IMG/VR virus record: IMGVR_UViG_2541047915_000011 | Source of the DNA: a virus | Lineage: Duplodnaviria > Heunggongvirae > Uroviricota > Caudoviricetes | DNA: 40,625 bases | Strand: one strand, 5' to 3' | Shown here: positions 1-31,820 of the stretch, in pieces | Numbering within the stretch: the stretch's first letter is position 1 | Layout of the letters: each line of letters opens with the position of its first letter | Made by a program: the position numbers and the translations under genes | Notes under the pieces: model-generated | The model's database searches: none | Told to the model about the DNA's origin: nothing | Seen by the model: only the letters and a program-made list of their open reading frames with translations

Positions 1-2148
1 TTACACCATACTGTTAACCTGGCCGGGTAATTCGCTAGCTGGAATACGAAAGGTATACCAGGCATAACGACAGCGTTTCCACAGGCTGGAGAAATGGAGA
101 TGATAAAGGCAATCTGCAATAATTTCGTTATCTGGATATAAAGACTCGGCAAAATGTGTCCAGCGCGCACTGAGTTTCATGTTAAACAGTTTTTCATCTT
201 CTTTGTTACCATACAGGCGCGACAAAGTAATCATTGCTTCGAGCGTACCTTTATTCGCTTCTTCTTGTACCTGTTGGAGGTGCAAATGAGCAAGTGAGAG
301 TTCTTTCACCTCAAAGATATTAAGTAAAAAAAGCCCCCATGCTTTTTCATGTCCAGCTTCATGAGCCAGAAATAAATTGTCAAGGAGATTTTTTTCATAA
401 ATAGCCCGTGTTTCTTTAGAAATTTCTTGTTTATTTAGTGCCTGGTAGCAGATAGCAATGCTAAAATAAATATTTTGTAGATCTTGTTGATGTTCGCTAT
501 AACCATAATTTTTTACCAGTGGATAAGATACCGAGCTATGGAAATTTAGGTCATCTTGAAGTATTTTAAGTGCCCGTCGAAAATACTCCAAAGCTGTAGA
601 TGGTTCATAAGGTAATTTTGTATTGTCTTCCTTATCCAAATATTCAAGAGCAACTAAATTTAATGCGGCAGGAATATTTCTTTGCTTACCAATTGTCGCA
701 AGCGGAATGAAATAATCAGAAAGGTCAAACCAACTCAAATCTTTTATTGCCGACCGCCAATTATGATTGTATTTAATGTCACTAGTTTTTTCCAGCCAAG
801 CATCGCCCTGCCCTTCATCTTTTTCAAAACCCAAAATACCCTCTCGCTGGAAAAACCCCCTATAAATAACAGGTGTAGCATAAGTTGTATTCTGTGAATT
901 TTGGCAGATAAAATTATATATCCAGAATGAATCTGGATAATAACTTAATGCAAATTTTATCGCGTACGCAGTGTAATAATTATTGAGCTTCATGTCTTCC
1001 ATCACCGCTCGCTGTATACAGCACCACAACTTATCGTGATCGTTCTGCTTGTTATAGCAGGCAAGTAACCACTCTAGGGCATTATGGCGACATTCCTGAA
1101 ATTGTGCGTACTGAGCAATATTCTCTGCTAAGTCGATTGCATATTGTTGCTCCTCGGGCGCAATGTCCTCAATGCTGACATCTCGGTAATCATCCCACCA
1201 AAGTAAGAGATCCATATAGTCATGTTCTTCGGTAGATAAGTGCTTACAGGTTACTGAATCCAGCAATTCGGAAATTTCTTTATGCGACCCTCCCCAGCGT
1301 GGCATTCGAAATGGTATATATTCAACAAAAGGATAAAAAGTGTGAGGAAAAATAGTCAGGCAAACAGAAAGCCAATATTTTTGCCCACCATCATCATCAT
1401 ACTCAGGAAGTATATTGGGGCGAGGCAAAACGGGGCATATTGCATGCTCAAACGAAAGTCCGGAATACGCCATCAACGCTTCCACTTCTTGCGGGGAGCG
1501 GCGGTGATAATTTTTCAGTGCGATCATTAATGGTATTCCTGCGACACTATCACCGTTAAGGTGTGCCGCCAGCCAGGCTGGCTGACCAAATACTTTTGAG
1601 TTGGTGCTGGTAAGTAATGCAGCCATCCATTGTCGTGGGTCACAATCAATTGCTTTAAGTGTAGCGATGACCATTTGTTCATTACATGCACCAGCACAAA
1701 GCCACATTGCATGTGTGGTATCATTTGCCCAGCCATAACTGCGATATAACCATGCACGGTGATTCCAGTATTGTGCTTCGGCAAGCCAGGCATGTGTAGA
1801 ATGAGGTCTTGCTTGCTGCCAGGTTTTAATGAGTCTTAAACCTTCTGTTCCGGCATCAACTAGCGTGTTCATATCATAAAAATAGTTGCACATTTGGGTC
1901 CAGGATAAAAAATAGCGCTTTTCAGCCTGACGAGAAGTGAAACTCTCCTGTAATACCTGGTTATAAATTTCATCTAGTTCCTGATAACGTTTTTCTTGTA
2001 ACATATAAGGAATATTTGCGATTTGCCATTTTCTCTCAAGAGTATTAAGTGGCATTTTTTGGTCACACATCTTTTGCATTGCACTGAGTAAACGAGCATC
2101 CTGTTCCATAGATATCCTTTTAATTAGGTTCAAAAATTTTAAATTCAT
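1..2148 (-). CDS. Hypothetical large protein (715 aa by longest ORF; an internal ATG at about 2109 with an AAGGA Shine-Dalgarno would give about 702 aa). Trp-rich N-terminal region, TPR/Sel1-like helical repeats in the C-terminal third. Distal gene of a 3-gene operon.
   Basis: Complete ORF with stop at 1-3. Overlaps or abuts the upstream 238-aa gene. AT-rich relative to yegQ. No family assigned from sequence alone. Confidence 0.6.
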   Translation of the reverse strand: MNLKFLNLIKRISMEQDARLLSAMQKMCDQKMPLNTLERKWQIANIPYMLQEKRYQELDEIYNQVLQESFTSRQAEKRYFLSWTQMCNYFYDMNTLVDAGTEGLRLIKTWQQARPHSTHAWLAEAQYWNHRAWLYRSYGWANDTTHAMWLCAGACNEQMVIATLKAIDCDPRQWMAALLTSTNSKVFGQPAWLAAHLNGDSVAGIPLMIALKNYHRRSPQEVEALMAYSGLSFEHAICPVLPRPNILPEYDDDGGQKYWLSVCLTIFPHTFYPFVEYIPFRMPRWGGSHKEISELLDSVTCKHLSTEEHDYMDLLLWWDDYRDVSIEDIAPEEQQYAIDLAENIAQYAQFQECRHNALEWLLACYNKQNDHDKLWCCIQRAVMEDMKLNNYYTAYAIKFALSYYPDSFWIYNFICQNSQNTTYATPVIYRGFFQREGILGFEKDEGQGDAWLEKTSDIKYNHNWRSAIKDLSWFDLSDYFIPLATIGKQRNIPAALNLVALEYLDKEDNTKLPYEPSTALEYFRRALKILQDDLNFHSSVSYPLVKNYGYSEHQQDLQNIYFSIAICYQALNKQEISKETRAIYEKNLLDNLFLAHEAGHEKAWGLFLLNIFEVKELSLAHLHLQQVQEEANKGTLEAMITLSRLYGNKEDEKLFNMKLSARWTHFAESLYPDNEIIADCLYHLHFSSLWKRCRYAWYTFRIPASELPGQVNSMV

Positions 2149-2836
2149 TCCACGGCAATTTTTTCCAGTTACTGGATGGATCTTTCAACCATGCAGTGAC
2201 TTCCTTTAAATCACGGTTCGCAGTGGCGACGGGGGTATCGTATATCATTAACCATTTTTGTCGGGCGCGAACATAAGCACTGGCATAATCTTCCCATGAA
2301 GCGAAACAATCTTGTGCTCTTTGAGCATTCAGTAATAACACTATCCAGGCCTGGTTTTCATCGCACCAGCCTAAACCGGCGATGCAACGAGTTAAAAAAG
2401 CAGTGCGCATACAGTCAAACGCCAGCCCATCCAGAACCTGGCCTTGTGCTGCCAGTTGTTCGTAAAAATCATGTGGAGAATTACCAAGCCCTGTAGCCCA
2501 GCGCTGTAATATAACGCCAATTTGTTGACGGAAATCTTCGTTGCTTTGGTAAGTTTCTGTTCCTAGCTCTTGTTTAACCTGTAGTGCAAGTTGTTGACGC
2601 TTATCATCAGTCAACTTTAAATCTAACGTGAAGCCATTTACTGACAGTCCATTACGACGAGCAACTATATCACCAATTGCTAATGCCCACTTACGTCTCT
2701 TTGTTGCTCGTCTTTTGTCCTTGATTAGATCCTTTTCTTTTTCTTTAGCAATAAAAGCATCGATTTGTGGTTTGTTTTTTTTGTATCTATAGATAAAAAT
2801 AAATATTGCGACCAGGAGAACAATGATAAGACTCAT
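2120..2836 (-). CDS. Hypothetical protein, 238 aa, with N-terminal hydrophobic signal-anchor/TM segment (LIIVLLVAIFIFIY) followed by a basic stretch
   Basis: ORF track. Start overlaps the stop of the upstream 404-aa gene (TAATG-type overlap at 2834-2838), suggesting translational coupling. Confidence 0.6.
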   Translation of the reverse strand: MSLIIVLLVAIFIFIYRYKKNKPQIDAFIAKEKEKDLIKDKRRATKRRKWALAIGDIVARRNGLSVNGFTLDLKLTDDKRQQLALQVKQELGTETYQSNEDFRQQIGVILQRWATGLGNSPHDFYEQLAAQGQVLDGLAFDCMRTAFLTRCIAGLGWCDENQAWIVLLLNAQRAQDCFASWEDYASAYVRARQKWLMIYDTPVATANRDLKEVTAWLKDPSSNWKKLPWNEFKIFEPN

Positions 2837-4050
2837 TATTTTTCAACCTCTGACAGGGGTAAGTAATGAGATGTCTGTAATGTCAAACTCTCTATCTCAA
2901 AGGAAATGTTGCTGATATTTTGACCTGCAAATTGCGGATGCCACTCAGCGCCAGGGAATAACATTTCCGCAGAAGTAGCAACTATAGGGTCAATAGCATT
3001 AAGATAATGTAACTTATCAGGTGCGCTGTGTAACAGTAACCACTGCAACTCCACTGAAGGATTTGTAAAATGTTCTAATAAATGAAAGTTATTATGTAGT
3101 ACGCTTAGTAAAAAACTGGTTTCGTATACTTCCGTTGCATATTTCCACCCCTGATATTCAGGTGTATTTTCATAAACAATACCCATACCTTCACAATCAC
3201 TATGTCGAACTGCTTGTGGTGATAATAGTTGCAAAAGAGACAAAACATCGTCCGCATATTTTTTAACTGGATGACGATTTTGCTTACCTTTTATTTGATC
3301 AATTTCAAGTGAATCACCAACAACATTGAGAGCAATAGTAACATGAGGAATATTATTATTATCACGCAAACTGAATAACCGTAATTTATGTTGCTCAATT
3401 TGATTTGCATAATACTCACCATAACCACCGGTAAGATTTTTTCGATCATCAAACTGGCCTACGCAATGTTGCATATGCCATGATTCATAAGCCATTTCAC
3501 GACGAAGGTTCGAATGACTGGCATCAAACTCAACAATTTTTCCGTCTGGCACATCAAGTATTGACTTTACAGTATTTTGTTCACTCGGCTGCCACCCTTT
3601 CTCGCGTCGTTGAAGCATCTTTTCATGCTCTTCTTCACGCATTCTGAACGCAACGTAGCAGGTTATGCGCTGTAGTTTTGATTCCAGACGGGTACCACAT
3701 TTCCTGGAAAGAAATTCCACCAACTCCCGTTCTTTGGTTAATATTTGTTGATGATCGGTTTCGATATAATAAAGTGTCGCAGTTGATACTGAGGCAGTAT
3801 TAAACTTCGATACCAGCCATTCCGGGATTACATCATCATTTTTATTAAACAGTGAATATTCTGCAAGCGAGTTAATTTGTTGCACCATTGGAAAGTCACT
3901 AATTAGCCATCGATAAAAATGGTTGAGTAACCATTTTTGGATGGTCTCATTATCCTGGCGAAACAGACTTCTTTGCAAAATTGCTGTTTTTACTTCCGGG
4001 GCATTAATTACATCCCTTGCATTATAATTCTGGTGAATATTTCCAGTCAT
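2836..4050 (-). CDS. Hypothetical protein, 404 aa, first gene of the 3-gene operon
   Basis: ORF track. Preceded by a 487-bp AT-rich intergenic region (4051-4537). Contains an HCVGQF...GGYGEYY segment. No confident family call. Confidence 0.6.
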   Translation of the reverse strand: MTGNIHQNYNARDVINAPEVKTAILQRSLFRQDNETIQKWLLNHFYRWLISDFPMVQQINSLAEYSLFNKNDDVIPEWLVSKFNTASVSTATLYYIETDHQQILTKERELVEFLSRKCGTRLESKLQRITCYVAFRMREEEHEKMLQRREKGWQPSEQNTVKSILDVPDGKIVEFDASHSNLRREMAYESWHMQHCVGQFDDRKNLTGGYGEYYANQIEQHKLRLFSLRDNNNIPHVTIALNVVGDSLEIDQIKGKQNRHPVKKYADDVLSLLQLLSPQAVRHSDCEGMGIVYENTPEYQGWKYATEVYETSFLLSVLHNNFHLLEHFTNPSVELQWLLLHSAPDKLHYLNAIDPIVATSAEMLFPGAEWHPQFAGQNISNISFEIESLTLQTSHYLPLSEVEK

Positions 4051-4537
4051 AACATCCGCCCGTGTTTATTATATCACTCAAAGCAATAATTGTTGACTAT
4101 AGATTTTTTATCTAAATCAGCATGGTTGCAGGTACATACTCAAGTAAGCCACTCAAGAAAATAACGTAAACTCAATAGTGGCAGCGTCACAAACTTTGGA
4201 AATTATGTCTTATATTTGCAGTTTATTTTAGTGAATAATTGAGATAAATGACATTATTTTACATCCTCAATAATTCAGGCTGTAAGAGGACGGCAAATAC
4301 ATTCATAATTATCAGGGGATGAACATTCAGGAAAGTAGTCAGTATCGTCAACTTTTTCTTTTATCACTACATGAAGATTTCGTGTAGATACTCCCATCTC
4401 TGCCACTTCTCCCCTCACATTTACACTGGAGCTAAACCCGCCGATTGCGCTACAATGCCCGCCCTTAAAGTGGGGGCACTCCCCTAACCGCTTCATCAGG
4501 TGAAGCGGCTCTGACCTGTCATCAGAACGAGAGAATT

Positions 4538-5899
4538 ATGTTTAAACCGGAACTCCTTTCCCCGGCGGGAACGCTGAAAAATATGCGTTACGCTTTCGCT
4601 TATGGCGCAGATGCTGTTTATGCGGGCCAGCCGCGTTACTCCCTGCGTGTACGCAACAACGAATTCAACCACGAAAATCTTCAGCTCGGCATCAATGAAG
4701 CCCACGCGCTGGGGAAAAAGTTTTATGTCGTGGTCAACATTGCACCGCACAACGCCAAGCTGAAAACCTTTATCCGTGACCTGAAACCGGTGGTGGAAAT
4801 GGGGCCGGATGCGCTGATTATGTCCGATCCAGGGCTGATTATGCTGGTGCGTGAACACTTCCCGGAAATGCCAATCCACCTCTCGGTACAGGCTAACGCC
4901 GTAAACTGGGCGACGGTGAAATTCTGGCAGCAAATGGGTCTGACCCGCGTGATCCTCTCTCGCGAACTGTCACTGGAAGAGATTGAAGAGATCCGCAATC
5001 AGGTGCCGGATATGGAGATCGAAATCTTCGTTCACGGCGCGCTGTGCATGGCCTACTCCGGTCGCTGCCTGCTCTCTGGCTATATCAACAAGCGCGACCC
5101 GAACCAGGGCACCTGCACCAACGCCTGCCGCTGGGAGTACAATGTCCAGGAAGGGAAAGAAGATGACGTCGGCAACATCGTACACAAGTACGAGCCGATT
5201 CCGGTGCAAAATGTTGAGCCGACGCTGGGTATCGGCGCGCCAACCGACAAAGTGTTTATGATCGAAGAAGCCCAGCGTCCGGGCGAGTATATGACCGCGT
5301 TTGAAGATGAGCACGGCACTTACATCATGAACTCGAAAGATCTGCGCGCCATCGCCCATGTTGAACGCCTGACCAAAATGGGCGTGCATTCGCTGAAAAT
5401 CGAAGGCCGTACCAAATCTTTCTACTATTGCGCACGCACCGCGCAGGTTTACCGTAAAGCTATCGATGACGCCGCTGCGGGCAAACCGTTCGATACCAGC
5501 CTGCTGGAAACGCTGGAAGGTCTGGCGCATCGTGGCTATACCGAAGGTTTCCTGCGTCGTCATACCCACGACGATTATCAGAACTACGAATACGGTTATT
5601 CGGTTTCTGACCGCCAGCAGTTTGTTGGTGAGTTTACCGGTGAGCGCAAGGGGGAGCTCGCGGCGGTAGCGGTGAAAAATAAATTCTCCGTTGGCGACAG
5701 CCTTGAGCTGATGACGCCGCAAGGCAACATTAACTTTACCCTTGAGCATATGGAAAACGCCAAAGGTGAAGCGATGCCGGTCGCACCAGGCGATGGTTAT
5801 ACTGTGTGGCTCCCGGTGCCGCAGGATCTTGAGCTAAATTACGCGCTGCTGATGCGTAATTTCTCCGGGGAAACCACGCGTAACCCCCACGGTAAGTGA
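4538..5899 (+). CDS. yegQ: Peptidase U32 family protein YegQ (also called TrhP)
   Basis: 453-aa ORF whose sequence matches my recollection of E. coli YegQ over its length. Sits immediately upstream of CyaR as in E. coli. Confidence 0.9.
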   Translation: MFKPELLSPAGTLKNMRYAFAYGADAVYAGQPRYSLRVRNNEFNHENLQLGINEAHALGKKFYVVVNIAPHNAKLKTFIRDLKPVVEMGPDALIMSDPGLIMLVREHFPEMPIHLSVQANAVNWATVKFWQQMGLTRVILSRELSLEEIEEIRNQVPDMEIEIFVHGALCMAYSGRCLLSGYINKRDPNQGTCTNACRWEYNVQEGKEDDVGNIVHKYEPIPVQNVEPTLGIGAPTDKVFMIEEAQRPGEYMTAFEDEHGTYIMNSKDLRAIAHVERLTKMGVHSLKIEGRTKSFYYCARTAQVYRKAIDDAAAGKPFDTSLLETLEGLAHRGYTEGFLRRHTHDDYQNYEYGYSVSDRQQFVGEFTGERKGELAAVAVKNKFSVGDSLELMTPQGNINFTLEHMENAKGEAMPVAPGDGYTVWLPVPQDLELNYALLMRNFSGETTRNPHGK

Positions 5900-11583: not shown

Positions 11584-12774
11584 TTAATTGCTGTTAACCG
11601 AGGTGACCAGATTTGCCAGATATTTATCGGTGATACGCTGGCGCAGGGTCAGGTTTTCGAGAGGAGGCACCGGGGTATAGTCGTAGTCGATATACAGTTT
11701 TCCGGCCTTGAGGGTTTCCGCATCGTTGGATTCTTCGCTGAACCAGCAGGTCGCATCCACGATATAGCCGTTTGTTTTCAGTTCACGGAATTTGGCATTA
11801 ATGCCGTCAACGATGTCGCGAATCAGCGTTGCGGTGATGGGCTTATCCACAGCCCACATGTGCGCCTCAGCCATCGTGTCGGCCAGCACCTGCGCGGTGC
11901 GGGTGTAGTTTTCAAAGAGGAACAGCGGGTCATCAGAGCAGGTACGGTTACCCCAGAACCGGAAACCGTCACGGCGAATCAGCGTTGTGACGCCTGACTC
12001 GTTAAGCAGGTCAGCATCGGTGCCGGACTCCTGCAAATCCCAGAATACAGATGCGCTGATGCCGGTAACACCGTTCACCCCGACATTGGACAGCGTTTTA
12101 TGCCAGCCCTGCTCCTGGTCGATTTTAGCGCGCAGCCCCAGCGCACGGGCGGTGGCATACGCGGTGGCGGTGGTACTGGTGACAGTATCCCATGCGAGGA
12201 AATCCGGCCAGATGACCATCAGCTCACGCTGGCTGAAATTCTGGCGGTAAGCTTTCACCTCGGAAATGGTTTTACAGCCCCATGCGCTGATATACCCGAA
12301 AGCGCGCAGCTTCTGACAGACTGATGCCAGTGCAACAGCCACCTCTTTGGTATCCAGTCCCGGCACGCCGAGAATACGCGGTTTAACACCGGTTACCGAC
12401 TCTGCCGCCAGCAGGGCTTTCAGTCCGGTATACTGACCGTTTTCGTCGGTGGTGCCGATGATATTGGAAACGGTCTGCGCGAGTTTCGTTTCCTCGTCAT
12501 CACCGGTGCCGTCTTCCACGCGCACGACAACGGTGACCGGTTTTGACTGGTCTGCGATGGCCTGCAACGATGCCGCCAGCGTGCCTTTTTTACCGGCCTT
12601 TGCAATTGCGCTCTGCACATTGGTAATCAGCACAGGTTTATTGAGGGGGAAGGTTTCCGCATCCGCATCGCTGGCCGTGCAGATCATGCCGACAATGGCA
12701 GTGGATACGGTGGAAATGACGCGGGTGCCGTCGTTAATCTCCAGCACCTGCACGCCGTGATGATAGTCACTCAT
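11584..12774 (-). CDS. FI: Contractile tail sheath protein gpFI
   Basis: 396 aa, P2 FI size and position. Confidence 0.9.
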   Translation of the reverse strand: MSDYHHGVQVLEINDGTRVISTVSTAIVGMICTASDADAETFPLNKPVLITNVQSAIAKAGKKGTLAASLQAIADQSKPVTVVVRVEDGTGDDEETKLAQTVSNIIGTTDENGQYTGLKALLAAESVTGVKPRILGVPGLDTKEVAVALASVCQKLRAFGYISAWGCKTISEVKAYRQNFSQRELMVIWPDFLAWDTVTSTTATAYATARALGLRAKIDQEQGWHKTLSNVGVNGVTGISASVFWDLQESGTDADLLNESGVTTLIRRDGFRFWGNRTCSDDPLFLFENYTRTAQVLADTMAEAHMWAVDKPITATLIRDIVDGINAKFRELKTNGYIVDATCWFSEESNDAETLKAGKLYIDYDYTPVPPLENLTLRQRITDKYLANLVTSVNSN

Positions 12775-12865
12775 CCGTTTAACTCCGTGGTTAATGGGTG
12801 CAACTATTTTCTGTTGTGCAGAGCATGAGACGCTATTTGACCTAGCTGGTTAGTGGATGAAACAA

Positions 12866-12897
12866 CAGATAAAGAAAAGGCGGGCAATTCGCCCGCC
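12866..12897 (-). terminator. Intrinsic terminator downstream of the Z/fun-locus gene, upstream of FI
   Basis: GGCGGGC / GCCCGCC stem with AATTC loop. On the minus strand it is followed by TTTTCTTTATCTG. Confidence 0.45.
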
Positions 12898-13103
12898 TGT
12901 CCTGATTTGAACTCACTCATTTTCCGACTGACAATTTACATAGCCCAAAAGTTATCAAATCTGACGGTCTGCTTTGAACAAGAAGCGGACATTTGCCTGT
13001 CAGGGTATATGCCGCTCTGCGGTTATTATCCAGAATCAATAATTCATCTGAGTTGGATTACATATAAAACATAGTTACCCCATGAATAACCATTAGCAGA
13101 TTA

Positions 13104-13697
13104 TCAATTATGTAAATCTTTTGTTTTATGTTCTTTGGCGTGTTGTGACAACAAATGGCTATAGCGTTTAAGCAAAATATTAGAAAGATTAAGCTCATTC
13201 ATGAAGTGTTCTTCTAATAAGTAACCATCAATATCAACTTTAATATCATTACCACTTTTCATCTTCTGTAACGTAGATTTTACACGCTCCAGCAGGATGC
13301 TTTGCTCATGGTAATAGTCCATAAGAAGAGTAACATCCTCTTTATCAAGCTTACTTAATTCGCTGAAGTAGGATTTAAACACTTTATCAGTCTGGTTTAA
13401 TGCAATCTGTAAGCGAGGCCCCCCTAATGATTTGACATTAATGGCAAAAGGCTCGCCAACAAAATGCTCCGAATTTTCGTCAAAGCCAATATATCTCGTT
13501 TTATCAAGAAAAGTGAGAGCGCGATGGTTATTAGCGATTTCATATGCAAACATTGTTCTGATACTGTCCCTCTCAGCCTCCATGCTTATATCATCACGAT
13601 GATTTGTATAAAATATATTTCCAACAAAGAGAACCATAGCAAGAATCACTGAACTTGCCTCCCAGTTAATATTTTTTAATCGTCGCTTAGTAAACAT
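13104..13697 (-). CDS. Z/fun-locus protein, 197 aa, N-terminal signal-anchor/TM helix, function unknown
   Basis: AT-rich ORF in the variable slot between G and FI. AAGGTG Shine-Dalgarno about 5 nt before the ATG. Hydrophobic segment SSVILAMVLFVGNIFY near the N-terminus. Confidence 0.7.
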   Translation of the reverse strand: MFTKRRLKNINWEASSVILAMVLFVGNIFYTNHRDDISMEAERDSIRTMFAYEIANNHRALTFLDKTRYIGFDENSEHFVGEPFAINVKSLGGPRLQIALNQTDKVFKSYFSELSKLDKEDVTLLMDYYHEQSILLERVKSTLQKMKSGNDIKVDIDGYLLEEHFMNELNLSNILLKRYSHLLSQHAKEHKTKDLHN

Positions 13698-13918
13698 ACC
13701 GCACCTTAATTATCAAAAATATTCCTTCAGTGTTATCTGGTTAGCCTAAACCAAGTCATTAAAGTCTGCAGGATATCATATACATAAAATGTATTGATTA
13801 GAATTTGCACTAATAAAATAATGCTTTACTAAAATCTACTCCAGACACAGAGCGGCCTGTCAGATTAGGCTTTACTCTGTGCCATAGATATGTTTGCTCA
13901 CTCCAGAGATCATACAAC

Positions 13919-14446
13919 TTATTGCGGCATTTCCGGCCATTCAGGATTTGCAGGATCCACACGACTGACCAGAACGCTGTAACGCTCCCATGCATCCAGT
14001 CGGCTACGCTCCTCATCTGTTGCCATGTTCAGTCTGACCGCGCGCTCCAGCGGCAAAATCACGGATTCAGCATCTGCAAGAAGTCTGGCTTTCCGGTTTT
14101 CTGCCTGCTGCAGCAATTCCTCTGCCGTATAAATGCGTTTAATCACTTTGCCGTCCTTAAACATCCAGCCCCCTGAAATGTCCGCCCGTCGGTTAGCAGT
14201 AATATCCGCCACTTCAACAACACTTAATCCATCCGGTCTGATAGCTGTCACATCCTTTTCCACATAGCGGATAATATTATCTTTGTCGTACGCTATTTTT
14301 ATCGTGTCATCAGCAAAATACTTTTGTTCTTCGTACCAGTTCTTACCATCTTCTGAAAAAAACCAGACAACATCAAAACCCTTTGTCAATTGATATTGTT
14401 CAACCGTTTTTGGATTACCCGCCGTAATATTTTTTAAATGCTGCAT
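13919..14446 (-). CDS. G: Tail fibre assembly protein gpG
   Basis: 175 aa, immediately downstream of H as in P2. Confidence 0.85.
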
Positions 14447-19718: not shown

Positions 19719-20504
19719 ATGTTCAGTGATAATGTGACTAATGCGTGGTGGTTTATCTCTTTGTATCTATTTTTATTAATAGCATTAACATTTATTACCT
19801 TTGGTAAAAGTAATCTTATGAGGTTTATTGCACATCATTTCAATTTTGAGTATTCAGACAGAAAGTTAAAAATGCTCGACAAAAAATGGCGCGACATTCA
19901 ACTATTTAAAATAATTAACGGAATCAATGTATCAGGCATCGAAGATGTGAGAATGATACAGCAGGGGCTGATTGATGGAAAACTAAAAACATCGTATTTT
20001 TTTCTTACTCGCTTCTGGGGTGACATAACAAAACCACCACACATAATTAAAACAATAATTGTAATTCTGTCCAGCATTATTTATATTCTCTTCGCATGTT
20101 ATATACACAACAAACAATCCGCTATAGTAAGAGATGCCATAGGCATACCATATAAAAATATGATGTACTATGTTTATAGTGACAAAGTTCTTTTATCCTT
20201 CAACAATAAAACAGTTGAATTCAATAAAACTTATAGCCATGCCGATTGCAAGAGGCTACGAAACGTATTTATAAAAGACACACTTCCTGAGATCGCCTGC
20301 AATAAGCTCTTACAGCTAAACGAGGAGGACTCGGAATGGTTAAGTCAGGAGATTAAAGATAATAACAGCCAAAAAAAAGCATTATTAATAATATCCCTCA
20401 TCTATTTCATTTCAGGTCTGGTTATATTCCTGTCATATACAAAATTCCTTTACGCCAATAAGAAGGTTGTAGAATACAAAGCATCAAATAAAAATCACTC
20501 ATAA
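19719..20504 (+). CDS. orf30-locus polytopic membrane protein, 261 aa, function unknown
   Basis: AT-rich ORF on the opposite strand between V and S, the slot of P2 orf30. GAGGAG Shine-Dalgarno at about 19707-19712. At least three hydrophobic TM-like segments (N-terminal, central, C-terminal). Confidence 0.7.
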   Translation: MFSDNVTNAWWFISLYLFLLIALTFITFGKSNLMRFIAHHFNFEYSDRKLKMLDKKWRDIQLFKIINGINVSGIEDVRMIQQGLIDGKLKTSYFFLTRFWGDITKPPHIIKTIIVILSSIIYILFACYIHNKQSAIVRDAIGIPYKNMMYYVYSDKVLLSFNNKTVEFNKTYSHADCKRLRNVFIKDTLPEIACNKLLQLNEEDSEWLSQEIKDNNSQKKALLIISLIYFISGLVIFLSYTKFLYANKKVVEYKASNKNHS

Positions 20505-29867: not shown

Positions 29868-30485
29868 TTAACTCTCAACCTCAATAAAAATATTTTTGGG
29901 CCCATTACTAATCGATATACCGATTTCATCCAAAACAGCCATCATTTTTCTCTGATGAGTTTTATATTTATAGTCTTTATTTTCCTCTGTAATATGTGCA
30001 TTGGCTTCCTCAATAACACATTTGATTCTAGATATTATTTCTAGATAATCTCTCGAAACAGATATATCACCGCCTTGCGCTTCAGGGAACATAACCCTAT
30101 ACCATCTAAAAAAATTAACTTTCTCTGGATAGATGCTACTTCTTTTAGTTAACTCAGCACTTGCAAATTCTCTAAACATCGTCAGATGACTAGTGTAATT
30201 ACTATTATTATTATTTTTAACTCCAGCGTTATATGTCATCAAAGCAATCATAACACCAAAAACGGTAACAAAAGTTGTTATAAGCCATCCAAACGCCTGA
30301 AAATACATTACTATACCAGATGTTTTTTCCGCAAAAAATTTTAAGCACTGGCTATCGAAGCATATATCACGCTCATATAGCTTTTCATTCTGAATAGTTT
30401 CAAAAAGAGAAATTAGCGAAAAAATCAAAAAAAGAGCTGACGACACACCGACAATATATTTGAGAAGTCTAATATTTGCATTCAT
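29868..30485 (-). CDS. Small 2-TM membrane protein (205 aa), candidate effector partner of the adjacent reverse transcriptase
   Basis: ATG at 30483-30485 overlaps the RT stop (ATGA overlap). Hydrophobic helices at about residues 10-28 and 58-84. Strongly AT-rich. Confidence 0.7.
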   Translation of the reverse strand: MNANIRLLKYIVGVSSALFLIFSLISLFETIQNEKLYERDICFDSQCLKFFAEKTSGIVMYFQAFGWLITTFVTVFGVMIALMTYNAGVKNNNNSNYTSHLTMFREFASAELTKRSSIYPEKVNFFRWYRVMFPEAQGGDISVSRDYLEIISRIKCVIEEANAHITEENKDYKYKTHQRKMMAVLDEIGISISNGPKNIFIEVES

Positions 30486-31672
30486 AATGGTTTTAAAGAT
30501 GCCAATCTAGATTTAAAACACTCCAGTTTTTCTTTAAATGATTCAGAGCGAGTAAGAATAATCATCTTATATCTCGTCAAATCATATTTTCTTTTATACC
30601 AATGTTTATTTTGATTACCTTTCGAATACGACAACTCTAAACTTTTTATAGCTGCATCAATCACAGCAACATCTCTTTTAGATGGCATCGGTTTTATTGC
30701 CTGCAACTGTTTCTTGAATGATTCATATTTTTCATGCCCAACACGGCCAAGCTTATTCACTCTCCCCATACATCTATTGAATTCTTTTCTGTATGCAACA
30801 CTTGTTTTTGTGTTATTTTTTGCCGCCAGTAATTTCAAATTATGTATAGATGCCCTGATTCTTTTGACTTCATCGGATGGTAGTCGAGGTGAGTCATAGT
30901 CAACTCTTAAACCATGTACTTTTATAGGTTCAGATGAACAGTGAAATATTTTAGTTTTGTGCTTATTTATCGGCAAGTCATGCTCAGAAAGCATCCTCTC
31001 TATATGGCTTTGCATTTGAGAAAAATCATAATTACTTATTTTAGATGACACGGTAATATCATCTACCAAACGCGTATAAACAAGTCCTTTCCTCTGCGCA
31101 CGTCTTACCACATCCCCTTCAACAGCGAATAAACACAAAGTTGCTATATAGCTTGATGTTAAGGCCCCCTGTACGACAAAATCATCCTTAGTACATATAT
31201 CCACCAAGTATTCAAGAGCCTCATCCTTAATATGCAATATCTCCTCAAACACGCTCCTAACCAGATCTCTATGGATATTATCGAAAAAATTACTTATATC
31301 CACCTTGAGAACTGTTTTTGCTCCACAATGAGCCTTTGCACATGAAACATAGTCACGTTTGACATTAGAATTTAACACATCATTTTTACTGGGAACTGAA
31401 CCAAACAAAAATGAAGGAAAAACAACCAATTCCTTAAAGATACGTTTATTAATTCTACTCTGTAATAATCTCATTTTAGGATGCAGGGAGTAGACAATCC
31501 GTTTGCTTCCGTCAATTTTGGGAATTTCTTTTAGAGTATATTTCTCATCTAATGGTAATTCTGCAATAGCTTTAAGCTCTTCAACAGAAATCGATAAAGC
31601 CTTTGACAACTTTTCAAGTGTTGTGATAGGAGCATTGGATTTGCTGTATGGTTTAAATTTATCCATAAACAT
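30482..31672 (-). CDS. Reverse transcriptase, retron-like (UG/Abi-type not excluded). About 396 aa from the ATG at 31672; the ORF track extends to a TTG at 31756.
   Basis: RT motifs in order: IPKIDGSKRIV, CAKAH, VLKVDISNFFDNI, QGALTSSYIATL, LVYTRLVDDITV (catalytic DD), INKHKTKIF, IKVHGLRV, then a basic C-terminal domain of about 135 aa. Start is ambiguous; the upstream extension overlaps a structured inverted-repeat region. Confidence 0.8.
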   Translation of the reverse strand: MFMDKFKPYSKSNAPITTLEKLSKALSISVEELKAIAELPLDEKYTLKEIPKIDGSKRIVYSLHPKMRLLQSRINKRIFKELVVFPSFLFGSVPSKNDVLNSNVKRDYVSCAKAHCGAKTVLKVDISNFFDNIHRDLVRSVFEEILHIKDEALEYLVDICTKDDFVVQGALTSSYIATLCLFAVEGDVVRRAQRKGLVYTRLVDDITVSSKISNYDFSQMQSHIERMLSEHDLPINKHKTKIFHCSSEPIKVHGLRVDYDSPRLPSDEVKRIRASIHNLKLLAAKNNTKTSVAYRKEFNRCMGRVNKLGRVGHEKYESFKKQLQAIKPMPSKRDVAVIDAAIKSLELSYSKGNQNKHWYKRKYDLTRYKMIILTRSESFKEKLECFKSRLASLKPL

Positions 31673-31689
31673 ACCATTCAAATTCAAAG

Positions 31690-31820
31690 TTACGTACGGT
31701 CTTCCCATACTCAAGGGTGGAACAGCAGAGATGCTTACATCAACAATTGTCAGCAACAGCCTCTGCTATCTTTCGACCGTACGTAATGTCGTCGGCTACG
31801 GCACCATCGTAGTTGACGAC
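31690..31820 (-). repeat. Nested inverted repeats and hairpins in the RT leader (candidate structured RNA element)
   Basis: 12-bp perfect inverted repeat TTACGTACGGTC (31690-31701 and 31775-31786) enclosing a 7-bp inner repeat AGCAGAG/CTCTGCT. Adjacent hairpin at 31788-31820 with 13-bp imperfect stem GTCGTCGGCTACG / CGTAGTTGACGAC. Confidence 0.5.

Follow-up and report, generated by a model that had tools for sequence, protein, structure and literature searches.

The slot between the tail fibre assembly gene G and the tail sheath gene FI of the P2-type backbone is a documented hotspot, the second P2 hotspot (Vassallo 2022, PMC9519451; PMC13586616; iLund4u preprint 10.1101/2024.10.15.618418), known to hold fun and three functionally validated PD systems (PMC9519451). 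In P2 itself (NC_001895), the slot is occupied by fun(Z), which encodes a 528-aa protein on the strand opposite to G and FI, and whose known phenotype is T5 exclusion and FUdR sensitivity, a case of lysogenic conversion. Fun(Z) carries a Walker-A-like P-loop (GEKGTGKT) near its N-terminus, with no membrane anchor seen. It is without a relative among solved structures, and this classical T5-exclusion protein is apparently mechanistically uncharacterised.

Slot contents differ from phage to phage: fun(Z) is present in P2, a 251-aa ORF on the other strand in P22H4, and an MFS efflux gene, among others, in Yersinia phage vB_YpM_115. Together with the literature, this bears out the preliminary description of the locus, which had taken the G-FI interval as a variable cargo site. 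The hotspot and the swapping of its cargo are well known; the gene presented here is itself unannotated and, as far as the searchable literature goes, unstudied. It was found in a stretch of 40,625 nucleotides from a tailed phage (IMG/VR record IMGVR_UViG_2541047915_000011), hereafter the window.

The cargo module of the G-FI slot

The cargo gene is located at 13104-13697 on the minus strand, starts with ATG, and encodes a 197-aa product (RefSeq WP_000494502.1), a predicted bitopic membrane protein whose family (PHROG 3829) is uncharacterised. The gene is preceded, in transcriptional order, by G (13919-14446, minus strand; Pfam Caudo_TAP, 3e-34), and downstream lies FI (11584-12774, minus strand; Pfam sheath domains, 98.5% identity to P2 FI), so that all three genes are co-directional. 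The ORF list and the Pfam matches of the flanks thus agree with the earlier placement of the gene. It is also the sole gene of the slot, as had been proposed, apart from two short ORFs (a plus-strand one of 73 aa at 12853-13074, and one of 38 aa annotated in PhiR44_1), neither of which gained support. An Rfam search of the slot gave nothing meaningful.

The ORF is considered a real gene rather than a chance one given its cluster of about 570 members, its homologues in at least six genera, and a dN/dS of 0.10-0.15 between genera, which indicates purifying selection. In the record of P2_SIDE7 (OU784746; locus L002, 3330-3875), the gene is annotated from an internal ATG that yields 181 aa, which would leave the protein without its basic tail and with only half of its membrane helix. 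The 197-aa start is favoured given the conservation of residues 9-20 (N11, W12, E13, A14 and V17 are invariant, and S16 is at least nearly so) and the Shine-Dalgarno sequence described below.

When the window was compared with the P2 reference by blastn, homology extended from the FI side as far as 12989 and resumed at 13846, towards G. The cargo module therefore measures 856 bp (12990-13845), with sharp break-points at 12989/12990 and 13845/13846, and includes a 3' untranslated stretch (12990-13103, minus strand) that reaches the homology break. The equivalent P2 segment is 2.1 kb long and contains fun(Z) and the V-operon terminator; the same comparison found no fun(Z) remnant in the module. 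The alignment to Z/fun suggested in the preliminary description, which had left the choice between orthologue and replacement open, gave a best BLASTP E-value of 2.8 over 68 residues. Orthology to Fun(Z) was rejected given this value, the difference in length (528 against 197 aa), the opposite strand, and the end of nucleotide homology at the slot edges. By sequence comparison, the cargo gene is a replacement of Z/fun. Given the P-loop of Fun(Z), in which no membrane anchor was seen, a shared mechanism of the two proteins is improbable. Hence, while the position assigned to the gene in the Z/fun slot stands, its link to T5 exclusion is positional only. A similarity of Fun(Z) to a KAP-NTPase found beside a distant relative of the cargo gene was also compared, and rejected.

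The base composition of the module is distinct. The cargo ORF has a GC content of 0.352 (0.338 at third codon positions), compared with 0.455 for G, 0.560 for FI and 0.493 for the whole window, and the 856-bp module as a whole has a GC content of 0.345 against 0.455-0.568 for the flanking genes. The AT-richness reported at first sight is therefore real (35% GC against 46-56% for the flanking tail genes). As in morons, the gene is absent from some related genomes at a fixed junction and differs from its surroundings in base composition.

The module also brings its own 5' region. A Shine-Dalgarno sequence, AAGGTG, is located at 13702-13707 (minus strand), 4 nt 5' of the ATG, as had been noticed; it is kept in homologues on other types of elements, where its conserved form is TTAAGGAG. 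Upstream alignment of homologues and comparison with P2 delimit an AT-rich 5' region borne by the cargo (13698-13845, minus strand): about 150 nt upstream of the start align with the sequences that precede homologues on a chromosomal island of Pantoea, on an IncFII plasmid of Enterobacter and on a metagenomic contig, with conserved blocks that include ...ATTTTAYRTATATGATATYCT..., ACTAACCA and TTTTTGATAATTAAGGWG. In this region, TGATATCCT at 13778-13770 is a putative extended -10-like element and a possible candidate for a promoter of the gene's own. A scan for the sigma-70 consensus gave fewer matches than shuffled sequence, so a promoter is not established; its sole match by the gene, at 13736-13709, overlaps with the region of ribosome binding and does not exceed chance. 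The 856-bp locus is best explained as a horizontally acquired moron in the G-FI slot, in line with the preliminary description, which had read the AT-richness as a sign of horizontally acquired cargo. The gene travels among unrelated mobile elements with its own 5' region.

In terms of transcript ends, the preliminary description had assigned the gene a terminator before FI. A hairpin is indeed present there (12898-12878, minus strand; 9-bp stem with 7 GC pairs, followed by a T-run), just upstream of the pF promoter region, but the alignment with P2 shows that it is conserved in P2 itself, which makes it a part of the backbone rather than of the cargo. This intrinsic-terminator-like element would end transcripts that pass through the cargo gene. 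A second hairpin, also of the P2 backbone, lies just 3' of G (13840-13888, minus strand); it is without an adjacent T-run and was not scored as a terminator. In the terminator scan, no good terminator was found between G and the cargo ORF, and the first good one comes after the cargo gene. Given no good terminator or adjacent T-run follows G, late read-through from the V operon into the cargo gene is probable.

Such co-transcription would suit an accessory of the phage's own lytic cycle, which would tune the timing of lysis by a logic like that of the T4 RI antiholin, or prevent re-adsorption to, or superinfection of, infected cells. The gene is oriented like the V-W-J-I-H-G operon, no T-run adjoins the hairpin that follows G, and the first good terminator comes only after the cargo gene. 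A weakly hydrophobic N-terminal anchor joined to a helical periplasmic domain, the architecture predicted here, would moreover resemble periplasmic lysis regulators. We nevertheless regard this reading as very unlikely: close relatives are found in P4-like satellites, plasmids, an ICE, the end of a lambdoid prophage and chromosomal islets, all without a P2 late operon or P2 lysis genes, only about 11% of P2-like slots carry the gene, the 5' region moves with it, and there is no similarity to the P22 Rz spanin.

Both break-points of the slot are marked by an imperfect 19-nt inverted repeat that brackets the variable region, with one arm on the FI side (12958-12976) and another on the G side (13848-13866), complementary at 15 of 19 positions. 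The arms (AATCTGACGGTCTGCTTTG / CAGAGCGGCCTGTCAGATT) are conserved P2 backbone. In P22H4, the same pair (16/19) brackets a different cargo, and P2 fun(Z) is bracketed by a shorter core, AATCTGA[C]AGT. The repeat might be a site of cassette exchange or inversion, which would fit the finding of cargo in either orientation; it might equally be simply hairpin sequence of the backbone.

Elsewhere in the window, the other P2 hotspot, between the portal gene Q and the replication gene A, holds a type IV retron (29868-31756, minus strand) composed of a 424-aa reverse transcriptase (PADLOC RT_IV, 8e-177; Pfam RVT_1) followed by a 205-aa 2TM effector (2TM_IV, 2e-75). The prophage thus has one recognised defence system besides the cargo gene. 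A 261-aa ORF at 19719-20504 (plus strand), opposite to the surrounding baseplate and tail genes and without a Pfam or PADLOC match, lies at what we take to be about the position of the non-essential orf30 of P2, and may be another cargo position. Positions 1-5899, beyond the D gene, encode non-phage proteins (a DUF4034 protein of 715 aa cut by the window end, a DUF1266 protein, a PcfJ-like protein and a peptidase U32) and are probably host flank or another islet.

The protein and its family

The 197-aa product matches the PHROG 3829 HMM over its full length (E-value 2e-137, residues 1-197 of 197), a family without annotated function. Searches of the query against Pfam, NCBIfam and PADLOC gave no match, and the Pfam and PADLOC searches of 20 family members gave nothing consistent (PADLOC v2 returned three scattered single-member matches, with E-values of at least 0.004). 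Sequence searches of the PDB, with the single sequence and with a profile, returned nothing below an E-value of 0.2. The family is very small and limited to Enterobacterales: the HMM profile found 28 proteins among 1.84 billion representatives, word-indexed searches of 5.8 billion proteins found 38-50, all of Enterobacterales, and a second word-indexed profile search gave no further named relative. The cluster has 569 members; relatives at 53-70% identity are found in Pantoea, Kosakonia, Salmonella, Enterobacter and Pluralibacter, and more distant ones in Proteus, Dickeya and Pectobacterium.

Many members are named "lysogenic conversion protein" by NCBI. This appears to be a positional label rather than a tested function, and a literature search found no experimental source for the name. 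The accession WP_000494502 is absent from searchable papers and from the DefensePredictor supplements searched.

R47, N57 and L117 show no variation among the members compared, the most distant of which have about 20% identity, and S16, A51, E53, I54 and Y129 are nearly invariant. R47, E53 and N57 are located on the long helix that follows the membrane segment. Each member has one hydrophobic segment, which in the query spans residues 13-31 and is moderately hydrophobic (mean Kyte-Doolittle of 1.54). The N-tail is net positive (+1 to +7) in nearly all of 36 members, and the downstream flank is neutral or acidic; in the query, the N-tail has four K/R and no D/E, and the 15 residues past the segment have two K/R and five D/E. 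Hydropathy and charge bias across the family, together with the AF2 helix, place the single N-terminal hydrophobic helix at residues 12-31 (13605-13664, minus strand), and the predicted topology is N-in/C-out, which would leave the helical bundle in the periplasm.

The AF2 model, built from an alignment of 24 sequences, presents a pLDDT of 74 and a pTM of 0.70. It places helices at residues 12-31 and, in the bundle, at 37-69, 88-116 (kinked), 119-148 and 154-178, with a short hairpin at 72-79, which makes the soluble domain a predicted four- or five-helix bundle of about 165 residues. The closest folds, of weak similarity, are chemoreceptor ligand-binding domains and OspC/Vsp, i.e., membrane-tethered extracytoplasmic helical bundles. 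As modelled, the fold is a generic helical bundle, and the structure points to no mechanism. The initial reading of the product as signal-anchored and without a recognisable motif has therefore held: one hydrophobic segment was found, the domain databases gave no match, and the remote-homology and structure searches, once run, yielded only this weak and generic similarity.

Distribution and genomic contexts

The gene is carried by 13 of 50,697 phage records, which represent eight distinct phages, all P2-like coliphages, and by 13 of the 67 phage records with the flank. P2-like FI slots number about 1950 in 1685 of the 5426 complete E. coli genomes, i.e., P2-like prophages are present in about one third of them. 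The gene itself occurs in 203 of the 5426 genomes, at 209 places, which corresponds to about 11% of the slots, or about one in nine. A scan of species-representative genomes found only two loci. The cargo slots of P2-like prophages have already yielded new immune systems. The gene fills about one ninth of those detected, has no functional annotation and was missed by the functional and computational screens checked.

About 30 E. coli and IMG/VR loci share one fixed spacing: G, 225 nt, the ORF, 333 nt, and FI. Their G alleles are 70 to 100% identical and their H genes differ, which suggests the module stays static while tail-fibre alleles recombine around it. In the E. coli replicon CP088669 (locus L016, 1713-3094), an IS1 lies between a truncated G and an intact cargo gene. 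Truncated versions of the protein (99 aa; cluster members P0041 and P0043) are found on about 40 contigs, which indicates that the gene is sometimes decaying.

About 15 distinct contexts of the family were surveyed, this window's slot among them. A recognised defence gene adjoins the relative in six of these, several further contexts are known hotspots, and about nine of 15 are without a recognised defence neighbour. In P2 hotspot 1, a relative lies beside the KAP-NTPase PDC-S49 (4e-88). In four P4-like satellites of Pantoea and Kosakonia, relatives are found downstream of the primase, a position described as a lesser hotspot of P4 for defence genes (PMC13586616). At the end of a lambdoid prophage of Salmonella, a relative adjoins a type II RM pair (1e-178 to 1e-182), a Proteus islet has one beside putAbiC and an HD protein, a ParA plasmid has one beside Lamassu LmuA/LmuB (1e-154 and 1e-249), an ICE has one inside its tra genes beside a PDC-M14A-like gene, and an IncFII plasmid has one beside a VapC toxin-antitoxin pair. 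Five further loci are islets of unannotated genes.

The remaining locus (L051, 5090-6657) has a distant member of 218 aa, at 29% identity and with extra CxC and CxxxxC motifs at its ends, located 38 nt downstream of the TIR protein PDC-S66 (2e-112), on the same strand and directly after an integrase. The two genes may form an unrecognised two-gene system of a TIR and a membrane protein; PDC-S66 is catalogued as a single-gene candidate.

This arrangement bears on the idea of an abortive-infection effector, inert until infection, which would then disrupt the inner membrane and kill or arrest the cell, either alone or with a cytoplasmic sensor such as a TIR. Besides the co-directional TIR neighbour, the idea draws on TIR, CBASS and retron systems usually having membrane proteins as their effectors (Rousset 2022), on the type IV retron with a 2TM effector in the same prophage, and on the helix being only moderately hydrophobic. 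However, the gene is solitary in the P2 slot and in most other contexts, the cytoplasmic tail has only about 10 residues, which leaves little to receive a cytoplasmic signal, and the conserved sequence falls mostly in the large soluble domain, predicted to be periplasmic. In addition, the TIR adjacency occurs in one lineage only, and PDC-S66 is listed as a candidate of one gene only. We consequently regard an abortive-infection effector as improbable. A factor that blocks entry fits better than a sensor-effector system, given the gene is solitary and the protein is predicted to be almost wholly extracytoplasmic.

Proposed function

Chances are slightly better than even that the gene is anti-phage in some way. 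As a working proposal, to which we give somewhat less than even chances, the cargo protein would be an envelope-level phage-exclusion factor that acts alone, most likely by blocking genome entry. This proposal is favoured by the solitary gene, its putative expression signals, the protein's predicted, almost wholly extracytoplasmic location, the constrained helix surface and the recurrent location in defence hotspots. Transcription in the lysogen would start in the AT-rich region that the module carries upstream of the gene, with a probable late contribution from the V-W-J-I-H-G operon through read-through. The N-tail would lie in the cytoplasm and the helical bundle would face the periplasm, where the conserved R47/E53/N57/Y129 surface would bind the ejection or tape-measure machinery of an incoming phage, or a host inner-membrane entry factor. 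Such binding by a superinfection-exclusion protein would leave genome entry blocked. That the protein works specifically as an entry block is, taken by itself, possible but doubtful.

A broader proposal, which we hold tentatively, is that the gene is the founder of a new single-gene envelope anti-phage family, with either an entry block or a periplasm-facing trigger. It would be a promoter-plus-gene cassette shuttled in Enterobacterales among P2 (both hotspots), P4, ICEs, plasmids and lambdoid prophages, and in one lineage a member would have come to serve the TIR protein PDC-S66 as its membrane partner.

Published lysogens bear on these proposals. P2_AC1 and P2_SIDE7, which carry the cargo gene as a 95% and a 99.5% allele, respectively, were used by Rousset et al. 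2022 to lysogenise E. coli C. Their panel comprised lambda, T4, P1, 186, CLB_P2, LF82_P8, AL505_P2 and T7, without T5-like phages. Of the two, AC1 alone was reported to protect, with an effect against lambda and LF82_P8 that the TIR system of the other hotspot reproduces in full (Rousset et al. 2022). Given the AC1 protection is explained by the TIR system, the cargo gene shows no obvious protection against those eight phages in E. coli C.

The absence of extra phage resistance in this panel would suit a lysogenic conversion apart from phage defence, such as tolerance of stress or serum, adhesion and colonisation, or the sensing of, or protection from, a periplasmic compound. The NCBI name of many members says as much, apparently on positional grounds, and the nearest folds, those of OspC/Vsp and of chemoreceptor ligand-binding domains, are bundles that bind at the surface or in the periplasm. 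The slot is, moreover, mixed-purpose (iLund4u preprint), as the MFS efflux gene of a Yersinia P2-like phage illustrates, which counts against a defence reading. Set against this are the repeated RM, Lamassu, TIR, KAP-NTPase and AbiC-like neighbours and the P2 and P4 defence hotspots, a protein without enzymatic or adhesin features, and hosts that are alike commensal, clinical and environmental. On this evidence, a conversion unrelated to defence is unlikely, and envelope-level exclusion is kept as the working proposal.

If the exclusion proposal is true, a compact single-gene exclusion family would be added to those known, the phage susceptibility of clinical E. coli would be better predicted, and the targeted entry component, of phage or host, could be traced through the conserved periplasmic surface. 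If no phage phenotype exists, the case would caution against inferring function from hotspot position alone.

Comparison with known systems

In comparison with Fun(Z), the cargo gene shares the G-FI slot of a P2-type backbone, the character of non-essential AT-rich cargo, and the common flanking backbone with its junction inverted repeat. The two differ in arrangement: the P2 gene opposes the tail operons and ends at the V-operon terminator, whereas the cargo ORF is co-directional with G and FI.

Superinfection-exclusion membrane proteins as a class, which includes P22 SieA, resemble the cargo gene by analogy, as small solitary AT-rich prophage genes with an N-terminal anchor and a predicted action at the inner membrane or periplasm; expression signals of its own, putative in the cargo gene, would be a further likeness. 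In architecture, the cargo protein may likewise be likened to HK97 gp15, T4 Imm/Sp and lactococcal Sie2009. In contrast with the resemblance, there is no homology to SieA or SieB, and gene-bearing lysogens are not reported as resistant to the eight phages above. Homology to P22 SieA and SieB was rejected with hhalign probabilities of 0.8% and 1.4%, respectively. A Rz-type i-spanin was rejected as well, with a probability of 0.3% against P22 gp15 and with the gene outside the lysis cassette.

The PD-T4, PD-T7 and PD-lambda systems and the PDC candidates (Vassallo 2022; PADLOC-DB) have in common with the cargo gene the second P2 hotspot, single-gene size, uncharacterised domains, and a spread over prophages and other mobile elements. 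They differ in that the cargo family has no consistent PADLOC v2 match and the gene was neither recovered nor mentioned in those screens.

Finally, 4HB extracytoplasmic domains, both those of chemoreceptors and sensor kinases and the Borrelia OspC/Vsp proteins, are similar in size to the predicted membrane-tethered helical bundle of the cargo protein. With OspC/Vsp, the likeness extends to a small beta-hairpin between long helices.
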